From Candidatus Eiseniibacteriota bacterium (GTDB taxonomy: Bacteria; Eisenbacteria; RBG-16-71-46; CAIMUX01; VGJL01): DNA of 64,000 nt. Position numbers and translations under genes: made by a program. The notes beneath the pieces are model-generated. The model worked only from the letters and a program-made list of their open reading frames with translations. It did not search any database and had not been told where the DNA came from. Location: assembly GCA_963792585.1 (NCBI GenBank), contig CAWBWI010000003.1:416001-480000 (forward strand). The letters run 5' to 3'. Each line of letters starts with the position of its first letter. Within the stretch, counting starts at the first letter, position 1. Below, one piece after another: positions 27,968 through 37,663 of this stretch.

Positions 27968-30900
27968 TTACTTCAAGAGAGCCATCTTCCTCGTCTGCTG
28001 GAAGCCGGTGGTCTCGAGTCGGTAGAGATAAATGCCGCTTCCGACGTCGTGCCCTCCCTCATCCTTGCCGTCCCAGACGATCGCGCGGGCCCCGGCGCCG
28101 ACGGGACCGTCGACGAGGGAGCGCACCTTGCGACCGGAGACGTCATAGACATTGAGCGTCACGACGCCGCTGCGTGGCAGGTCGAAGCGAATCGTCGTCC
28201 GCGGGTTGAATGGATTCGGAGCCGCGGCGTGCAGCGCGTACCGCGTCGGGATCGCCCCCTCGGCCACATCGGCCGGCTCCGCATTGACGATGATCGCCAG
28301 CGGTGTTGCGTTGCCCCAATTGCCCGCGGCGTCGCGACCCCGCACCCAGAGGATGTCACCGCCGGGGTTGAGCGTCCCGCTGTCGATGCTTGCCGTCACG
28401 GGGGCGGTGGGAGTGCCGAAAGCGCCGCCCATGGCCGTTCCGGTTCCCGCGGGCGCGGGTGAGCCGCCGTGGGACCATTCGGCGTTGGTGATATTTGAGT
28501 TGCCCGTGAGGACGTCGCTGATCGACGCGGTCAGGGTGACCGGCAGGGGAACGCGCACAGGATCGGGGTTGATCCCGATCGAGCCGGCGACGACGGCAGG
28601 TCCGCGGGTATCGCCGCCCGGCCGGTTGATCGTGAAGTTCCCTGCCGAGGCGTCGGTTCCGAAGAGAACCGGCGAGCCGTTGTCGCCAACGGCGATCTTG
28701 ACCCGATACTGCACTCCGTTGGGGATCGCGTCGATGTTCCAGGAGTAGGGGCTCGCTCCGGCGGCCGCGGTGATCAGCGTCCATGTGTCGCCGCCGTTGT
28801 CGCTGTAATAGATCTTCCGCGTTGCGATCGAGAAGCCCGGCGCGGCCGACTCGGTCCAGGTCACGCTTACGGTGCTCCCTGTGAAGATCTCGCCGCCGTT
28901 GGGAGCGGTGAGGTCGGCCACGGGGTGATCACGGCCGATCAGCCAGATCAGCATCTTGTCGAGCACGTCCGCCCGTGCAACGTCGTCTTCGGCTCCGTTG
29001 TTCACGTGCGCCCACTCGAAGAAGTTGCTCGACACCTTGTTCGGGGTCCCGCCCCAGACGGAGTTGGCAGGGTTGCCGATCGGGCTGCTGCCGGTCCATC
29101 GCAGCGCGATGTCGTCGATCGTCGTATCGTTGTTCCTCCAGTCGTAGGCGAAGGTGCCGGCCCCGGCAATCCCGTCGATCTCATCGCCCGCCGCGCCGTC
29201 GCGGTGGGGTGCGTAGTTGAGGCCGCCGGTATAGGCGCCGCTGATCGGATCGCCGGCCAATCCGGTGACCGTGCTGAAGGTCGTCGGGTCGGCCTGCCAG
29301 GTGGCGTGAAGTTGCGCGTTGAACCAGTCCCGCCGCGCGACCGTGTAATCCGGCGATGTGGCGTCACTGAAGTCCCAGGCGACGTCGTGCGAGTAGACCG
29401 CCAGGCGCGAGCCGAGGCTCATGAGGCGCGCGATCGAATCACGGGCCGCATCCGAGAACACCGGATACTGCTCGAGACCCGGCTGCAGGAGGACCGCCTT
29501 GAACGACGCCATCCCGACGAGCTTGTCGCCGACGAAGGGAATCGATGCCTGATTGCCCTCCCACAGGGTGTAGCTCCATCCGGTGCGGGTGAAGGCGTTC
29601 AGATAGCGCTGCGTCTTGTCGTAGCTCGAGTCACCGATGACGAGCAGGACGTCGCGGTTGTGGCTCGTCGTGAAGGTGTAGTGATTTCCTCCATTGTCGT
29701 CCCGCACGGTATTCCCCTGGTGATCGGCCGACTCCACGTCGTAGTAGTAGGTCTGCTCGGGGAGGAGACCAAAGATCACCATGGAATGGGCGACGATCAG
29801 GGCCGGCGCGAGCGGCGTCTCGAGCCCGAGGGAGGGAGTGGTTCCGTAATAGATCTTCGAGGTCGCGGTGGCGTCGGTCGTCCAAGCGATCGTGGCGTCG
29901 CCCTCATTGGTTGCCTGGAGGTGGACGTTGGTGATCGTCGGGCCGTCGAGGTCAACCCGCGCCGTGGCGACCAGGGTCGCCACGGGGCTCGCGTCGTTGT
30001 AGGTCACGGTGATCTGGTCCCCGTTGCTGACGCTCAGGGTGCCGTTGTTCGACACGGGGTAGGTCGTGCGCAACGGAAGGCTCCCCTCGAAGACGCCGTT
30101 GGCGCCCGTCAGCGTGACCGTTTCGGTGGATGGCTCGGTCGTGCTCGTCGCCGTGACGGTGAGCGGGCCGGCCGCGTCTCCATCGATGATGCGGACGTGC
30201 ATGTCGTCGCTGCCGCTGTACGTGGCCTTGTCCAGGAGGACGACCCCTTGATCGGCCGCGAGCCCGCCGGTGATGACGAGGGCGAACGGTTGGGGGCCGA
30301 ACGGAACGTTCGCGGCCTCGATCCGGAAGGTCCAGATGCCGGTGGACGGCGTGTTGCGGCGCACGCACTCCTCGACGTTCCGATCATCCGCCGTTCCGCC
30401 CGTGATTGATTGGCCGGCGGAATAGACATTGCCCTTGTACGAGCTGACGCCGTCGTTCACGACGAGGTTCAAGTCGTTGACGAGCTGCACCGAGGCATTG
30501 GGATTGCCGGGATAGTCCGTCCACACGACGGCGGCCTTGACCGGGATCGCATTGGAGGCGATGTAGACCTGATACTCGACATACTCGCCGGTGAGGAGGC
30601 CGTCGGTGTTGTCGACGAGAACCAGCCGCCGCGCATCGCCCGCGAAATAGAGGACCTGGTCATCGTCGATCCGGCCCCAACCGATGTTGTTGTTCGGGAC
30701 CGCCGTTCCCCCGACGTCGGGGTCGGCGGAGTTGATCGCCATCGCCTTCATGAGGGCGGCGGACGGGGCGTCGACCTGGTTGCCGGGAATCGGGGCGCCG
30801 GTCGGATACCACCCTTCCCCCAAGTACTGCCGCAGAAGCACCGTCGCCCCCGCCATCGCTGGGCTCGCCATGCTCGTGCCGCTATAGGAGATGTACCCGG

Positions 30901-32467
30901 TGTCGCTCTGACCGTAGGCGGATGTGAGGGTTGCCGGCGCGCAGATCGTCGGCTTGAAACGGTTGTCATCCGTGGGGCCCCGGCTGGTCGACCCGTAGAT
31001 CTGGTTCGCCCCCGTTCCGTTCCCCGTTCCTCCCGCGGAGACGACGTTCTTGGCCGTCGCGGGCGAGCCCACGGTGTTCGGCGCGCCGTCGTTCCCGTTG
31101 GAGAAGAAGGGGAGGAAGTCCGGGTGGTTCCACATGAACTGATCGGCCGTCATGGACATGACATCGTAGGCGCCGCCGACCGCATTCCCCCAGCTGTTCG
31201 TCATGATCCTCGCAGAGCCACCGGCGTTGCCGTTGTACGGCTTGATCATGAGGTCGTTCAGATCGGGCGGGACGTAGATGCCCGCGCCGAACGCGCTGCC
31301 GCCGTCCACGAAGTAGATCTTGGAGCGGATCGCCATCCCGTCGTGCACGTCCGTGGCATTCGGGGAGTCGTCGCCGGACGTCGTGCAGTTGGTGTGGGTT
31401 CCGTGATACCCGTTGCCGGCGTCATCGCCGAAGGTGACGGTGTTGCCGGCGACGGTCGGCCAGTAGGCGATGACCTTGCGGTGGGTCGGGAAGTCGCCGA
31501 AGGCGGTGATCGGGACCGCCGCATCGTAGAACTGCTTGTGCGTCATCCGGATTCCGCTGTCGCAGTTGCCGATGACCTGTCCGTCCCCGAGAATCCCCAT
31601 GTCCCAAACGCGGCGGTTGCCGTTCGTCCAGGTCTGGACCACCCATTGGCACCTGTCGTTGTGAAGTTCCGGGGTCTTGCGCGGCTCGATCCAGGCCACG
31701 CCGTCGATCCGCGCGATCTGGGGGAGTTCCGCCATGTCGATCTCGGCGCGGATCATCCGATTGATTCCATTGTCATAGGTTTCGAAGATCGTGGCGCCGG
31801 CCACGCGCGCCTGCGCGGCGGCCTGGTCGATCGACGCGTCCGGGAACAGCAGCAGGATCATCTCCTTGCGGCCCGACTCCCGCATCTGCGGTTCGGTGCT
31901 GATCTTGTAGGCGGGCTGGTAGAAGCCGCTCCAGGAGACCCGCGCGGACGATGCGACGCGGGCGGCGGCGTCGCCGGTCAGCGAGACGAGGAATGCATAG
32001 TCGGGCAGATAGCTGTAGATCCGCCCGCCGAGTGACTCGAGAAATGCGCGATCCGCCTGCCCGATCGGTCCGTCGAACTGGACGATGAACGTCCCGCGAT
32101 CGCCTCCGGCCGGCGGCGTCATCCGCAGCCCGCTCGGGATCGGTTGATCCGAATCCGGAACCGACGGATCGAGCTCGTAGCCCGCCCCCAGGCGGATCCG
32201 CGTCGGCTGGCTCGGCGGCTCGAGGCCGATCGTCCCCCGCTGGGTCGACAGAATCAGAGGGCTCGAAGGAAGGGATCCCTCTCTTCCGGGCGGGACCGCG
32301 GAAAGACCCGCAGGCTCCCCGGGGGTCGCCGGACGGGACGCCATCGCGGGCGCGATGGCAAGGAGGGCGACGAGCATGCTCGCCGCCGTGATGGTCCAGA
32401 GACCCCTGAATGTCGCGCGGAACCCCGCGCCCTTCCTGGGCATTCCTCGATCTAACCTACCCGGCAT
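27968..32467 (-). CDS. Large secreted S8 peptidase (FN3/Ig-like accessory domains, FlgD-Ig/CTD-like C-terminus)
   Basis: CDSG, YHGTHT, SNGN, SGTSMASP, SAALMKA. C-terminal PNPFNPRTTIRFDLP...WDGKDEGG...SGIYLYRL. RBS GGAGG before ATG 32467. Confidence 0.92.
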   Translation of the reverse strand: MPGRLDRGMPRKGAGFRATFRGLWTITAASMLVALLAIAPAMASRPATPGEPAGLSAVPPGREGSLPSSPLILSTQRGTIGLEPPSQPTRIRLGAGYELDPSVPDSDQPIPSGLRMTPPAGGDRGTFIVQFDGPIGQADRAFLESLGGRIYSYLPDYAFLVSLTGDAAARVASSARVSWSGFYQPAYKISTEPQMRESGRKEMILLLFPDASIDQAAAQARVAGATIFETYDNGINRMIRAEIDMAELPQIARIDGVAWIEPRKTPELHNDRCQWVVQTWTNGNRRVWDMGILGDGQVIGNCDSGIRMTHKQFYDAAVPITAFGDFPTHRKVIAYWPTVAGNTVTFGDDAGNGYHGTHTNCTTSGDDSPNATDVHDGMAIRSKIYFVDGGSAFGAGIYVPPDLNDLMIKPYNGNAGGSARIMTNSWGNAVGGAYDVMSMTADQFMWNHPDFLPFFSNGNDGAPNTVGSPATAKNVVSAGGTGNGTGANQIYGSTSRGPTDDNRFKPTICAPATLTSAYGQSDTGYISYSGTSMASPAMAGATVLLRQYLGEGWYPTGAPIPGNQVDAPSAALMKAMAINSADPDVGGTAVPNNNIGWGRIDDDQVLYFAGDARRLVLVDNTDGLLTGEYVEYQVYIASNAIPVKAAVVWTDYPGNPNASVQLVNDLNLVVNDGVSSYKGNVYSAGQSITGGTADDRNVEECVRRNTPSTGIWTFRIEAANVPFGPQPFALVITGGLAADQGVVLLDKATYSGSDDMHVRIIDGDAAGPLTVTATSTTEPSTETVTLTGANGVFEGSLPLRTTYPVSNNGTLSVSNGDQITVTYNDASPVATLVATARVDLDGPTITNVHLQATNEGDATIAWTTDATATSKIYYGTTPSLGLETPLAPALIVAHSMVIFGLLPEQTYYYDVESADHQGNTVRDDNGGNHYTFTTSHNRDVLLVIGDSSYDKTQRYLNAFTRTGWSYTLWEGNQASIPFVGDKLVGMASFKAVLLQPGLEQYPVFSDAARDSIARLMSLGSRLAVYSHDVAWDFSDATSPDYTVARRDWFNAQLHATWQADPTTFSTVTGLAGDPISGAYTGGLNYAPHRDGAAGDEIDGIAGAGTFAYDWRNNDTTIDDIALRWTGSSPIGNPANSVWGGTPNKVSSNFFEWAHVNNGAEDDVARADVLDKMLIWLIGRDHPVADLTAPNGGEIFTGSTVSVTWTESAAPGFSIATRKIYYSDNGGDTWTLITAAAGASPYSWNIDAIPNGVQYRVKIAVGDNGSPVLFGTDASAGNFTINRPGGDTRGPAVVAGSIGINPDPVRVPLPVTLTASISDVLTGNSNITNAEWSHGGSPAPAGTGTAMGGAFGTPTAPVTASIDSGTLNPGGDILWVRGRDAAGNWGNATPLAIIVNAEPADVAEGAIPTRYALHAAAPNPFNPRTTIRFDLPRSGVVTLNVYDVSGRKVRSLVDGPVGAGARAIVWDGKDEGGHDVGSGIYLYRLETTGFQQTRKMALLK

Positions 32468-32596
32468 GTTTCCTCCCACTCGGTCGAAACGAAGGCGTTG
32501 GTGGACACGACGTTGCTTGATCAGAGGCGTGCCCGGCACGGCTTCCCGCTGCAACGCGGGCCCGCTGGAGTCCAGGGCACGTATCGGTAACCTAGA

Positions 32597-32625
32597 ATTA
32601 TAACGGAAATTGAGGGCAGCGGCAA
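32597..32625 (-). promoter_or_regulatory. Sigma70 promoter TTGCCG-N17-TATAAT for the S8 gene
   Basis: Perfect -10 and 17-nt spacer in an AT-rich divergent intergenic region. Confidence 0.65.
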
Positions 32626-32682
32626 GGCGACCGGAACGGCAATCGGGCATCGAGGACCCCCTGGGATCCCCCTCTGTGGTCA

Positions 32683-32691
32683 TGGTATCAT
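32683..32691 (+). promoter_or_regulatory. Extended -10 (TGgTATCAT) for the M23 gene
   Basis: TGn-TATCAT 40 nt upstream of ATG 32731. Confidence 0.45.
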
Positions 32692-32730
32692 CGTGTCGGC
32701 GCATCTTTGACTCGCGAGAGGAGTTATGCC

Positions 32731-34890
32731 ATGCATCGTGCCCTTCTGACCGCCATCCTGCTGCTGGCCGCCGTCCACATCACCGTTGCCGCGCCGGCGC
32801 CCATGCCGCGCGTGAGCTGCCAGGGCCGTTTCGAGGCGACAAGTCCCGGGCCCTACGGTCTCGAGTGCTCATTCTCCGCGAGCGGGTTCGACCTTACAGG
32901 GGCCACGCTCCTCGTGACCGATCCGGCGGGGATCGTCCATCGTCTCGAGGAGATCCCGGGGACGGCCTTCTTCGTCGGGGCCAACGGTAGGATCGCGGCC
33001 ATCGAGCGTGCCCCGATCGATGCGATCGCGAGCCGCCTGGTCATCTACGACCTCGCCGGTCGGAGGCTCTACGCGCGAGAAATCGATGCGCCCATCAATC
33101 CCGCCCTCGCCTCCGACGCCGCGGGCCTCGTTCTCCGCGATGCGACCGGCATCGTGCGGATCGATTTGGGCACCTTCGAGGAATCGCGTGTTCCGGCGCT
33201 GGATCTCTTCGCGGCGGGTCCGGCCGGCCGGTTGGCCGGCGTGCCCTTCGGCGAGGGGAATGATCTCCTCGTCTACGGCCCGAACGGACTCGAGTCGCGC
33301 ATCCCGCTCGACGCCAGGCCGCGCGGGATCGCCTTCAGCGCCGATGGGACGACGATCTACGCGATCGACGCCCGCGCGCTGTACCGAGTCGATTCCGCCT
33401 CCGCACGGCCCATCTACACGGCGCCGGAAGGCGCCGAGATCCAGGACATCCTCCTTTCGGGCACGACGATCTACCTCGGCGAGCGACGCATCGAAGCCGA
33501 AGCCTTTGCGGGATCCATGGTGGAACTCGACCCCAACGGCCGGATCGCACGCCGGATCGCGGGCCCCGTCGCGTCCGTCACCCGCGGGGTGAGCGATCCC
33601 GCCGGCAGTCGTGGGATCCCCTGGCCCCTGCTTCCCGACGCCCAGCACTCGGTCGGCAATACCTGGGGCGAGTACCAGAACTACGGCGGTACGCCCTACC
33701 CTCATCCGGGTTTCGACATCTTCGGAAGCGCCGGGCAGGCCGTCTACTCCGTCAGCTCCGGGGTCGTGAAGGCGGTTCTCACAACCGGCGGGGACCTCTA
33801 CTGGCGGGTTGCCATCGGCGACTCGCTCACGGCGGGGACGTGCAAAGGGTACCTCTATGCCCACCTCGTCCAGTCGAGCATCGCCGTCCACGCCGGCGAT
33901 CTGATCGTCCAGGGCCAGTACATCGGCAATCTGGTCCAGTGGCCGATCTACAACTTCACCCACACTCACTTCGCGCGTATCCAGCAGAGCGGCACGCAGT
34001 GGAACGGGAGCTGGCTGGCGGTCGACAATCCGCACACCACCTTCACGCACCAGAACGACACGCGCCCGCCCGTGTTCGAGCCGGCCCGTGGAACCGACCT
34101 TCTCGCATTCTGCAACAACGAGACCTCGACCTACCAGAGCCCGGCGTCTCTCCACGGCGCGGTCGACATCATCTGTCACGTCGGCGACCAGATCGAATCC
34201 ACCTGGGTCTGCTCGGTGCAGGAGTTGCGCTACACGATCTATCCCATCAACCGCCCACAGTACCCTGTCGTGAACAACAAACTCTCCGTGGTCTTCAACA
34301 TGACGATCGACTACTACGCCGGCGGATCGGATTACCTCTGGCTCAACACTCTTTTGTACAAGAAGGACTCGACCTGCAACACCCAAGGCGATTACGACTT
34401 TCGCGAGTTCTACCACATCTTGAGCAACTCCGACGGAGACGGTCTTTGCGAACAGACGGACGCGCTCGAGGCGTGGAACACGGCGGCGCTGCCCGACGGG
34501 CAGTATGTCGTCAAGGTGGTCGCGGTCGATGCCGCAGGGGGCGCGAAGGCCGACTCGATGGTCGTGGCGACGGTGAACGGGAATCCGTCGGATGTTTCCG
34601 ATGCGGCTGCTGCGCTCGGGGTCCGACCGAACGTCTTCCCGAATCCCTCGTCGGGGATCGTCTCGATCGCCTTCACCCTCGCGCAGGGAGGCCCGACCTC
34701 CTTGAGGATCTACGACCCGGCGGGGCGGCGCCTGCGGACCCTGGTCGATGCACGGCTCGATCCAGGCCTCCACACCATCAACTGGGATGGTCGCGACATT
34801 GAGGGGCATCGGGTCGGGTCGGGAAGCTACTCCTTCGTTCTGGACTCGCCTGGGGGCGCCGCGAACGGGAAGATCACCGTCTCGCGATGA
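32731..34890 (+). CDS. Secreted protein: beta-propeller-like N-terminus, M23-like peptidase domain and FlgD-Ig/CTD-like C-terminus
   Basis: Signal peptide. HPGFD (HxxxD), YLYAHL, V..GD.I..GQ.IG, HTHF (HxH). C-terminal FPNP...IYDPAGRRLRTL...WDGRD. Confidence 0.8.
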   Translation: MHRALLTAILLLAAVHITVAAPAPMPRVSCQGRFEATSPGPYGLECSFSASGFDLTGATLLVTDPAGIVHRLEEIPGTAFFVGANGRIAAIERAPIDAIASRLVIYDLAGRRLYAREIDAPINPALASDAAGLVLRDATGIVRIDLGTFEESRVPALDLFAAGPAGRLAGVPFGEGNDLLVYGPNGLESRIPLDARPRGIAFSADGTTIYAIDARALYRVDSASARPIYTAPEGAEIQDILLSGTTIYLGERRIEAEAFAGSMVELDPNGRIARRIAGPVASVTRGVSDPAGSRGIPWPLLPDAQHSVGNTWGEYQNYGGTPYPHPGFDIFGSAGQAVYSVSSGVVKAVLTTGGDLYWRVAIGDSLTAGTCKGYLYAHLVQSSIAVHAGDLIVQGQYIGNLVQWPIYNFTHTHFARIQQSGTQWNGSWLAVDNPHTTFTHQNDTRPPVFEPARGTDLLAFCNNETSTYQSPASLHGAVDIICHVGDQIESTWVCSVQELRYTIYPINRPQYPVVNNKLSVVFNMTIDYYAGGSDYLWLNTLLYKKDSTCNTQGDYDFREFYHILSNSDGDGLCEQTDALEAWNTAALPDGQYVVKVVAVDAAGGAKADSMVVATVNGNPSDVSDAAAALGVRPNVFPNPSSGIVSIAFTLAQGGPTSLRIYDPAGRRLRTLVDARLDPGLHTINWDGRDIEGHRVGSGSYSFVLDSPGGAANGKITVSR

Positions 34891-35552
34891 TCGGACGGCT
34901 GCTCGCCCGTCTGAAGCCCTCTTCGGGCGATCGATATGGGAGTTTCTCCGAGTTGCTGCGCAATGAGCGCGAGGGACGGGATTTCCTCCGCACCGTCATC
35001 GATCGTGACGCCCCCATCGCGATCGTCGCTCCTCACGGAGGCGGGCTCGAGGCGGGGACGTCGGAGATCGCGCGCGCGATCGCCGGCGGAGACCTGTCCC
35101 TCTACTGCTTCGAAGGGATCAAACTGCGGGGCAACGAAGTCCTGCACGTCACCAGCAGACGCTTCGACGACCCCGCATGCCTCGATCTGCTTTCGCGGGC
35201 GAGGACGGCGGTGACGATCCACGGTTGTTCGGGGCAAGACATGGGGATCCGCGTCGGCGGGCTGGACGCCGGTCTGAAGGCGGTGGTGACCCCGGCGTTG
35301 ATCGAGGCGGGGTTCGTTCCGCTCGAGGATGATGCTGTCTACTCCGGTCTCGATCCGGCGAACATATGCAATCGCTCCGCCACCGGCCGGGGACTCCAAC
35401 TCGAGCTGAGCCGGGGCCTGCGGGGCGTGATGTTCAGCGGGCTCGAGCGAACCGAGCGCGCCTACACGACGCCCGTCTTCCGGCGCTTCGTGACGGCGGT
35501 GCGGGGGGCACTCCTCTCGACGATCGACACGCCTGCGGCCCCGCCGGTCTGA
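34887..35552 (+). CDS. Poly-gamma-glutamate hydrolase family protein (DUF867/PghP-like)
   Basis: APHGGGLEAGTSEIA, LHVTSRRFDDP, TIHG, NICNR, GLQLELS. Confidence 0.85.
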   Translation: MIGRLLARLKPSSGDRYGSFSELLRNEREGRDFLRTVIDRDAPIAIVAPHGGGLEAGTSEIARAIAGGDLSLYCFEGIKLRGNEVLHVTSRRFDDPACLDLLSRARTAVTIHGCSGQDMGIRVGGLDAGLKAVVTPALIEAGFVPLEDDAVYSGLDPANICNRSATGRGLQLELSRGLRGVMFSGLERTERAYTTPVFRRFVTAVRGALLSTIDTPAAPPV

Positions 35553-35607: not shown

Positions 35608-35616
35608 TGATATAAT
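35608..35616 (+). promoter_or_regulatory. Extended -10 promoter TGaTATAAT
   Basis: Perfect TGn-TATAAT 55 nt upstream of ATG 35671. Confidence 0.6.
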
Positions 35617-35670: not shown

Positions 35671-37308
35671 ATGAATCGACCAGCATTCCTCGTCTTCGTC
35701 GTTCTCGCCCTTCTCCCGGCCAGCGCGCCGGCGGAGCCGACCCTCGCCTGGAGCGATCTCTTCGATGGGGGAGGACACTACACGGACATCGCCACCGCGG
35801 CGTTCACTGATCCGTCCGGCAACCTCTATGTAGGCGGCGAGAGCGCCGACGGCGTGCTTGGGGCCGATATGTCGATCCGCTGGATCGATCGCGCAACCGG
35901 GATCTCGATCTGGGAGACCCGGTACTCCGCCTTCGACGGGAACGACATGGCCCTCTCCGCACTGGAAGGAGACGGCTTCGGGAACATCATCGTCGCGGGT
36001 TATATCCGGGGCTGCGCGACCTGAGGCCACGGAGACGACATCATCGTCCTGAAGCTGGACGGTGAGACCGGGGAGTTTCTCTGGTCCCAGCACATCGCGA
36101 GCGGCACGGGCACGAACGAATCGGTTTTCGACCTCGCGTGCGACGCGGCCGGCAATGCATTCGTGACCGGGCGTTGGTACGTGGACGGCTCCGACGACAT
36201 TGTCACGATCAAACTCCGCGCATCGGACGGCGAGCCCCAGTGGCAGCGTCTCATCGGCGGCGGGTACGACGATCGTGGGTGGGCGATCGGCATCGGCCCG
36301 GACGAGAACCCGATGGTCACGGGGATTCTGTCCAACGGCGACGGAACGGCTCAGTTCATCACCTTCAAGCTGCGCAGCTCGGACGGATCGACCGTCTGGA
36401 GTCGCCCGATTCCCGGCGCGCTCGACAATGTGACAGAGAAGATCGGCTGGCTCGTCATATGCGACGACGGCGATGCGATCATGGGCAACCGCGTCTGGTC
36501 CTCCACGACGGGATACGACGTGATCCTGCAGCGATACGCCGCGGCCGACGGCGCCACGGTCTGGGAACGGCAGTACGGCTCGGCCGGAACCGTGGGCGAT
36601 GAGCCGCGGTGCATGGTCCGCGACGAGGCGGGGGACCTGCTCGTGGCGGGCGCGCGGCGGAGCGACTTCATGGCATTGAAGTTCAGTCGGGTCGATGGAT
36701 CCCTGCTCTGGTCGACCGACTACAACGGACCGGCGGGAAGCTACGATGCCGCGAACTGCGTGATCGAGGGACCGGGCGGCGCGGTCGTCGTCAGCGGATT
36801 CACATCGAGCCCGATCTACAGCTGGAACGTGAGCACGGTCGGCCTCGATCCGGTCGACGGCGCCCGAATGTGGGCCGCGCACCATGACGGCGGGGGAAAC
36901 GGGCGATCGGGCGAGGGGAAGGTCCTGGCCGCGGGGCCACTCGACGACATCTATGTCTGCGGCTACTTCTACGGGTTGAGCACCGACAGCGACATGATGT
37001 CGCTTCGCTATACCCTCGGACCGCCCGCCGGAGTGATCGAAAACGGCGTGGTCGCCCCGGTCTCGATCTACCCGAACCCTTCGGCCTCGGCGACGTGGAT
37101 CTCGCTCGATCTCGATTCCACTGAGTCCGTGCGTGTCGTCCTATACGATCCGGCGGGCCGGCGCGGGGCGATCCTGCACGAAGGAGTGCTCGATGCCGGC
37201 CGCCACCGATTCTCGTGGGATGACGGTGCCGCGGCTCCGGGTGTGTACCTCGTGCGGATCGAGACCTCCCGCGTGTCAGTGGTGAGGAAGTTGATCCGCC
37301 TTCCTTAG
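35671..37308 (+). CDS. Secreted beta-propeller protein with CTD-like tail and an in-frame TGA (36022-36024); candidate selenoprotein (CxxU)
   Basis: ORFs 35671..36024 and 36163..37308 are in one frame, separated only by TGA in IRGCAT*GHGDDIIVLKLDG. The repeat pattern continues across the stop. Confidence 0.75.
36041..36065 (+). promoter_or_regulatory. Bacterial SECIS-like hairpin
   Basis: TCATCGTCC-TGAAGCT-GGACGGTGA: 9-bp stem (one G-U), loop starts 25 nt after the UGA, G at loop position 2. Confidence 0.5.
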
Positions 37309-37315
37309 GCGGCGA

Positions 37316-37663
37316 TCACCGCTGCTTCGCGTGCCACTCCTCGAGCACGGCGACCGCCCTGCGCAGGTGGGGGATCACGATGCTTCCGCCGACCGTGAGC
37401 GACACGCTGAAGACGTCGTACAACTCGGGATCGGTCACACCCAGATCCTTGCACTGGAGCAGGTGGTAGGTGATGCAGTCATCACACCGCAGGACCATCG
37501 ATGCGGCCAGCCCGAGCATCTCCTTGGTCTTGCGGTCGAGGGCGCCGGTCTCGTAGGTCAGAGTGTCGACCCCGAAGAAGCGCTTGATCGCTCTGTGGTC
37601 GGCGGCCATGATCTTCTCGTTCATCTTCGTCCGAAATTCCTCGAAATCCTCGATCCGTCCCAT
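37316..37663 (-). CDS. Carboxymuconolactone decarboxylase/AhpD family protein
   Basis: GALDRKTKEMLGLAASMVLRCDDCITYH (CxxC..H). Confidence 0.9.
   Translation of the reverse strand: MGRIEDFEEFRTKMNEKIMAADHRAIKRFFGVDTLTYETGALDRKTKEMLGLAASMVLRCDDCITYHLLQCKDLGVTDPELYDVFSVSLTVGGSIVIPHLRRAVAVLEEWHAKQR

Follow-up and report, generated by a model that had tools for sequence, protein, structure and literature searches.

Interconversion of selenenylsulfide and selenolate/thiol forms is the established chemistry of selenoproteins carrying the motif CxxU, i.e., Cys-x-x-Sec. In bacteria, the families described with this motif include (i) the SelW-like proteins (PF10262), (ii) the AhpD-like proteins (TIGR01926), (iii) GrdA (PF04723), and (iv) the TonB-dependent receptor FCYXU (NF049945), according to the available text of PMC13188914. 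In the bSECIS model, as given in the portions of the sources at hand, a G stands at the first or second position of the loop, mostly as N1-G[G/U]N-N2 with N1 and N2 paired (PMC13188914), and 16-37 nt separate the UGA from this loop (PMC13188914; PMC10778597); 12.6% of the entries of BSepDB are nonetheless without a canonical SECIS (PMC13326102, available text). All known selenoproteins further seem to have Cys homologues, and the finder deep-Sep retains new candidates only when such homologues exist and may miss those without (PMC12013277, likewise as far as the available text goes). As regards the protein fold, the closest described systems are the SBBP propellers (PF06739; NF047494; CylK, PDB 7RON) and the eight-bladed propellers BamB/YxaL.

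The window considered here, i.e., the whole stretch of 64,000 nucleotides of genomic DNA that was analysed, contains a gene that appears to bring these two kinds of systems together, the main features of which are as follows.

35671..37308, + strand: single gene of 545 aa with TGA118 read as selenocysteine, ending at TAG
36022..36024, + strand: in-frame TGA, predicted Sec118 (27/27 distinct orthologues; 4/4 runs)
36013..36015, + strand: Cys115 (TGC) of the C-x-x-U motif (27/27 distinct orthologues)
35608..35616, + strand: putative extended -10 promoter, sequence match to the consensus as TG-A-TATAAT, without -35 match

A preliminary description of this DNA had taken two adjacent open reading frames for one frame broken by a single TGA, and translation of 35671-37308 (+) bears it out: 545 codons with one internal stop, namely the TGA in G-C115-A-T-[TGA118]-G-H-G, a region that a table-11 gene caller divides into pieces of 117 aa and 381 aa. 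The TGA at 36022-36024 is not a sequencing or assembly error, since independent contigs from 4/4 public runs (contigs, not raw reads) span the codon without substitution, carrying neither the TGG nor the CGA that had been envisaged as signs of misreading. From run X4, a 42-nt gappy piece with deletions at 36022-36024 was set aside as a presumably different sequence, its ends being unrelated. Two contigs from RNA libraries cover the TGA codon as well, contigs alone not showing transcription. As for the extended -10 element previously described as perfect, TGnTATAAT does stand at 35608-35616, one of 11 occurrences of this motif in the 5.4-Mb genome; it has to be regarded as a consensus match only, because a promoter scan with a required -35 box gave 0 sites.

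In a protein search of 101 genomes, 12 matches stood out (E at most 1e-126, the next at 4e-35), each having one TGA that aligns to residue 118 and follows an invariant Cys; the same 12 orthologues were returned from 206 genomes of the phylum. Two DNA scans contributed 28 further loci, the record labels met most often in one of them being Candidatus Eisenbacteria/Eiseniibacteriota and Krumholzibacteria. Among the 40 loci examined, TGA occurs at the aligned codon in 39/39 covering the site, and never Trp, Arg or another residue, as the preliminary description had implied for a selenoprotein. Removal of 11 exact duplicates, one truncated near-copy (L077) and one locus not covering the site (L064) leaves 27 distinct orthologues of 36-92% identity, 15 of which were retrieved by scans using, among their patterns, the peptide that the second hairpin described below (H2) encodes. 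The Cys before the TGA is kept in all 27, while the C-x-x-U motif is missing from 14/14 paralogue loci covering the site. One orthologue (L054) lies outside the main lineage, in a Fibrobacteraceae record, and its genome has selA and selB.

It is highly improbable that the TGA is a true stop, whether in a conserved split gene, a pseudogene or an assembly error, or that UGA is read as Trp or Gly under another code. Such a reading would agree with the annotation of the gene as two proteins in databases and with the apparent indel lesions of the assembly elsewhere, where a SprA-like gene lies in pieces. Against it, the internal codon is TGA in 27/27 orthologues at a median identity of 45%, never TAA, TAG or a frameshift, and both parts of the protein are equally conserved (47% identity before the TGA, 45% after). 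Nor is there a conserved restart codon: only 8/27 orthologues offer an in-frame start in the 20 codons that follow the TGA, at four different places, and in the structural model a stop would cut blade 2 mid-way. The terminal stops of the same orthologues are mixed (13 TAG, 5 TAA, 5 TGA and 4 cut by a contig end), and TGA, the commonest true stop of the genome, accounts for 692/1318 stops genome-wide, so that TGA would not be retained at an unconstrained stop. The sole tRNA with a TCA anticodon in the genome is, besides, the tRNA-Sec. Judging from this pattern of conservation, the internal TGA is under selection across the orthologues and, fixed in 27 distinct sequences, most likely encodes selenocysteine.

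The preliminary description had made the selenoprotein reading depend on selA, selB, selC and selD, and all four are present in the window's genome, selC as the tRNA-Sec and selD with an in-frame TGA of its own. The gene for SelB is found in 17/17 other carrier genomes, i.e., in 18/18 with the window's genome, and selA in 17/18 (11/12 + 6/6), the one carrier without it (G058) being 81% complete and having selB; an unpublished genome (G079) enters these selA and selB tallies only, and no claim depends on it. This co-occurrence is necessary and not discriminating, because selA is found in 95/101 relatives searched. In many relatives, selD is present in two copies, one with an in-frame TGA and the other stop-free, this second copy belonging for the most part to a much longer frame.

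Downstream of the TGA, the coding sequence holds two hairpins.

36041..36065, + strand: hairpin H1, conserved core 36042-36064, likely a spacer or pausing stem (97.7% of cells paired)
36066..36086, + strand: hairpin H2, 9 bp, apical A-[G-U-U]-U, likely the SelB-binding SECIS (candidate; 99.6% of cells paired)

H1 had been reported earlier as a SECIS-like hairpin of 9 bp with a loop 25 nt after the UGA and G as second loop base, and folding returns it exactly so, with 9 pairs (one G-U) and the 7-nt loop UGAAGCU starting 25 nt past the TGA. Folded alone it has z = -4.3 (1/200 shuffles as stable), falling to only -1.4 to -2.0 in contexts of 41-64 nt. When RNAalifold is applied to the orthologues, H1 and H2 appear as two adjacent hairpins, with the same 17 pairs as in the pairing count, where 98.7% of 459 cells are paired as against 37-58% in slid controls, and 0/500 shuffles reach as high a value, a shuffle test that is inflated by kinship among the orthologues. 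In H1, two pairs are changed on both sides, and an A-U/G-C swap is seen in 11/27 sequences; since both states of this swap occur inside three well-supported clades of a tree of the 25 sequences (out of 27) longer than 300 codons, H1 is real. The part of the earlier claim that did not stand concerns the loop, as the second loop base of H1 is G in 14/27 and C or U in 13/27, and the G[G/U] pattern is never seen.

It is the adjacent hairpin, which had gone unnoticed, that fits the SECIS pattern in 27/27 orthologues, with apical loops A-GGU-U (21), A-GUU-U (4) and A-GUC-U (2). H2 shows less covariation than H1: 5/9 pairs never vary and a single pair is changed on both sides, in one sequence. In the 12 sequences found without patterns drawn from the H2 peptide, it is 100% paired with the loop pattern in 12/12. 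At silent sites, the codons of H2 (132-138) form the top window for synonymous conservation (0.905 versus a mean of 0.525, sd 0.089, over 487 windows), the best window outside codons 119-139 reaching 0.768. Glu135, encoded by GAG in 27/27, supplies the loop G as its wobble base, whereas Glu150 is encoded by GAA in 17/27; residue 136 is variable (Val, Phe or Ser), its codon always ending in the U that closes the loop. The 27 genes together hold 42 pattern hairpins; 27 lie at the H2 site and each other site is represented once.

As to position, the H2 loop lies 50 nt after the UGA in all 27 orthologues, and H1 alone, at 25 nt, falls within 16-37 nt. In 12 family-like Sec genes of the same genome, the loops are like that of H2 but at 17-28 nt, and the loop of the SelW-like gene, AGUUU, is identical to it; the scan behind this comparison was confined to genes in which a pattern hairpin lies 12-61 nt after the UGA, and 20 of its 50 candidates were run against NCBIfam, most family hits being below cut-off. 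As far as the RNA is concerned, the roles could be reversed, H1 being the candidate SelB-binding SECIS and H2 an accessory enhancer or stabiliser. This assignment has on its side the distance of H1 from the UGA, the stronger covariation of H1 with its recurrent swap within clades, and the G in the first two loop positions of H1 in the window's genome, which satisfies the loose rule; it is rather unlikely in view of the 13 orthologues in which the second loop base is not G and of H2 being both invariant in its G[G/U] pattern and more conserved than H1 at silent sites. The SECIS was thus probably misassigned to H1 in the preliminary description, and H2 is the candidate SelB-binding SECIS with a fair degree of probability. 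More tentatively, and as a possibility rather than a probability, the gene would belong to a Sec-only propeller family in which the UGA is decoded through a two-hairpin SECIS, H1 folding out 23 nt and thereby bringing the distant SelB-binding loop, at 50 nt, within range of the ribosome. The gene offers a direct test of the SECIS, because the key loop G of H2 can be removed by one synonymous change.

The preliminary description had also proposed a look for TGA or Cys (CxxC) at the aligned position in homologues, and in the orthologues only TGA was found. Neither a Cys form nor a full-length orthologue was found by a whole-protein word-index search (94 hits among 8000 candidates scored), nor among 18 candidates (0/18) when residues 85-150 were searched against proteins of 299-954 aa, and a Cys-allowing pattern in the two DNA scans yielded TGA forms only. 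A profile search of 1.84 billion representatives returned 320,173 hits (E ≤ 0.001), i.e., a very large repeat family, with no full-length member in the best 150. Of 242 database proteins taken from the word-index and profile searches, 38 align across more than 200 residues at 36% identity or above, and 38/38 of these start after residue 125; 11/11 N-terminal database fragments have C-x-x as their very end. The gene is present only as two halves in all databases searched and needs re-annotation. CxxC occurs in a comparable loop of 3/253 distant repeat proteins, none of them orthologues, and such sporadic cases could show how the motif might arise. One protein with CGNC in a comparable loop (P0190) was considered as a Cys orthologue and rejected, being a 2357-aa multi-propeller protein of 23-33% identity with the motif in another blade of the profile alignment.

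The encoded protein can be divided into three parts.

35671..35733, + strand: predicted signal peptide, residues 1-21, ending in A-P-A (by eye)
35740..37014, + strand: predicted eight-bladed SBBP-like beta-propeller, residues 24-448 (AlphaFold2 model, fold searches, repeats)
37060..37299, + strand: Ig-like T9SS type A/FlgD-like C-terminal domain, residues 464-543 (TIGR04183, model)

The signal peptide was judged by eye, the model having a helix at residues 5-13 at low pLDDT and the N-termini of the orthologues being similarly hydrophobic. Propeller repeats had been said to continue in register across the stop, and eight repeats of ~53 residues do run through the TGA. The AlphaFold2 model, built on a 12-sequence alignment (mean pLDDT 83.7), has 32 strands in residues 24-448, arranged as eight four-stranded blades in a closed propeller, followed by the Ig-like tail. 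In this model, strands 106-113 and 123-129 are joined by a short turn containing C115-U118, these being inner strands 2-3 of blade 2, with a pLDDT of 67 for residues 111-120. Propeller enzymes place their active sites on the top face, formed by such loops (PMC8916777, available text), and the CxxU motif is predicted to lie in a top-face loop of the propeller, a placement drawn from topology, not coordinates. Fold searches (Foldseek, VIA-align) assigned no catalytic family and returned generic propellers only, the best Foldseek match being CylK (E 1.8e-16, 22% identity) and the VIA-align matches being WD40 and BamB-type propellers at Z 32-36 (BamB 32.0-32.4; CylK 31.3). A sequence search of the PDB found only FlgD tails, with weak matches to tetrathionate hydrolase and PorZ.

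The tail, previously noted as CTD-like, passes the cut-off of TIGR04183 (33.6 versus 23 bits), PF18962 and PF13860 remaining below theirs. In the genome, PorU and eight PorV are found above cut-off and a SprA-like gene in pieces, below cut-off. Since the tail passes TIGR04183 and the genome has PorU, PorV and SprA-like genes, T9SS-type export to the surface is plausible. The SprA-like gene with its flanks (L142, G000:C4:15698-19945) lies in several frames, probably through assembly indels.

Taken as a whole, the gene is reasonably likely to encode an exported propeller selenoprotein with a Cys-x-x-Sec redox switch outside the cytoplasm. In the proposed chain, SelB with Sec-tRNA would, with hardly any doubt, decode the UGA; it would fairly probably do so by binding the G-loop of H2 50 nt downstream, H1 folding out 23 nt so that the effective distance would be ~30 nt. 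The predicted signal peptide and T9SS-type tail would then route the protein to the cell surface, where Cys115 and Sec118, on the top face, could with somewhat better than balanced likelihood alternate between the selenenylsulfide and the selenolate/thiol state. The pair may act on substrates docked on the propeller, whose disulfides, peroxides or polysulfides it would reduce or isomerise. As to electron donors, it may be speculated that these are the exported thioredoxin-fold (TlpA-like) and Omp28-related Sec candidates of the genome.

Other roles can be considered for the same selenoprotein. The C-x-x-U turn could serve surface scavenging or detoxification by binding a soft metal or a metalloid (Cu, Hg, Ag or As), in line with a loop that is exposed, glycine-flanked (Gly117 in 25/27) and of lower model confidence, with the Sec metal-binding and mercury-handling proteins of Table 1 of PMC13188914, and with the MerB-like and ArsM Sec candidates of the same genome. 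This role is nonetheless quite unlikely: the loop misses a third invariant ligand, the invariant Asp residues are part of the repeat pattern, and no metal-resistance genes occur among the neighbours. Cys115 and Sec118 being the only invariant Cys/Sec columns of the 27-sequence alignment, and His120 being kept in 16/27 only, the alignment argues against a fixed three-ligand metal site. Alternatively, the Cys-Sec bond could be a structural staple or an oxidation sensor on a non-catalytic propeller devoted to binding or adhesion, which would suit a scaffold belonging to so large a repeat family and the CxxC found in a similar loop of a few distant proteins. In a staple, Cys should do as well, yet the searches brought up no Cys orthologue; the gene moreover upholds 45 nt of RNA structure so as to retain its UGA, all of which makes such a role distinctly improbable.

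Around the gene, four neighbours deserve description.

37316-37663, - strand: convergent CDDC-containing gene of the CMD/AhpD family (PF02627), immediately downstream, not conserved as a neighbour
34887-35552, + strand: poly-gamma-glutamate hydrolase (PF05908), upstream, not a conserved neighbour
32707-34890, + strand: M23 peptidase with FlgD-Ig tail, upstream
27968-32704, - strand: large subtilisin-type protein with the same FlgD-Ig tail (by eye)

Excluding the gene itself, antisense frames and tail-sharing proteins, no ORF family is found in more than 4/26 loci, and no neighbour pointing to a partner or substrate is conserved across these 26 loci. Elsewhere, the genome appears to have a rich selenoproteome, with SelD, SelW-like, HesB-like, AhpD-like, ArsM, UshA-like, two TlpA-like and MerB-like candidates whose loops lie at 17-28 nt, in addition to the following genes.

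G000:C1:1777337-1777948, - strand: L130, small secreted-looking protein with in-frame TGA and hairpin core at 20 nt, no Pfam/NCBIfam match
G000:C5:106882-107643, + strand: L132, secreted-looking paralogue of L130, likewise with in-frame TGA and sharing its hairpin core (at 20 nt), no Pfam/NCBIfam match
G000:C6:198322-199341, + strand: L134, C-G-[TGA] after a predicted signal peptide, with its hairpin at 18 nt, without Pfam/NCBIfam match
G000:C6:898986-900989, 966191-968290, 968606-970564 and 972477-972839: four Omp28-related exported Sec candidates, three of them in tandem

L130 and L132 likely represent a further uncatalogued selenoprotein family, 16/17 of their matches, in 13/61 genomes, having one in-frame TGA, counted irrespective of its position. 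L134 is a candidate Sec/Cys family: among its matches, in 8/61 genomes, 5/11 have one TGA and the others none, three of the latter covering the site. The Omp28-related genes comprise three weak NCBIfam matches and one paralogue, one of them also scoring for a T9SS tail; in the tandem, two copies are apparently frameshifted in the assembly.

Compared with the bacterial CxxU selenoproteins of PMC13188914, as its available text describes them, the propeller gene shares the UGA three codons after a Cys, the hairpin in the coding region, and SelA/B/C/D in the genome. It differs from them by its fold, none of the 119 families catalogued in Table 1 of that source (2026) being a beta-propeller. None of the 7 matches of the window protein in NCBIfam 20.0 is a selenoprotein model either. 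The word 'propeller' was not found in the available text of PMC12013277 or PMC13326102, and a literature search with most subscription papers outside its scope found no bacterial propeller selenoprotein and no spacer-hairpin SECIS. The protein is almost certainly a selenoprotein missing from the catalogues checked, as far as sequence comparison can tell. Known selenoproteins seemingly all have Cys homologues (PMC12013277, available text), in contrast to the propeller family, for which none was found. The Omp28-related selenoprotein (NF045500) is, like the propeller protein by prediction, exported, but carries a UxxC-type motif near its N-terminus, has no propeller and has its loop at 19-20 nt; the window protein does not match NF045500.

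With the SBBP propellers and the eight-bladed BamB/YxaL, the window protein shares repeat pattern and fold. Most of its distant homologues carry PF06739, as do C-terminal fragments of orthologues; the window protein itself is below the Pfam cut-off for this family, PF06739 not being reported at E up to 0.1, and far below that of NF047494, yet it is structurally alike in the model. CylK has seven blades (PMC8916777, available text) versus eight in the window protein, which is without the N-terminal Ca-binding roll.

As for the RNA, H2 is like the bSECIS consensus in its 9-bp stem and N1-G-[G/U]-N-N2 apex, and its loop is similar to those of the lineage's own selD SECIS (G-GGA-C or A-GGA-U); it is unlike the consensus in having the loop at 50 nt, not 16-37, with a conserved H1 stacked directly before. 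If the two-hairpin reading is true, the 16-37 nt rule would be broken by a new class of bacterial SECIS, which could explain part of the 12.6% of bacterial selenoprotein genes without a canonical one. Two blind spots of selenoprotein finders, in the versions their available descriptions give, are exposed by this gene, i.e., the need of deep-Sep for Cys homologues and the restriction of bSECIS to 16-37 nt. Among the exported selenoproteins, a kind of protein already known (NF045500, NF049945), the propeller protein therefore stands as a new family, with a SECIS layout departing from the model, and the bacterial selenoproteome would gain from it an exported scaffold that is a propeller and not a thioredoxin.
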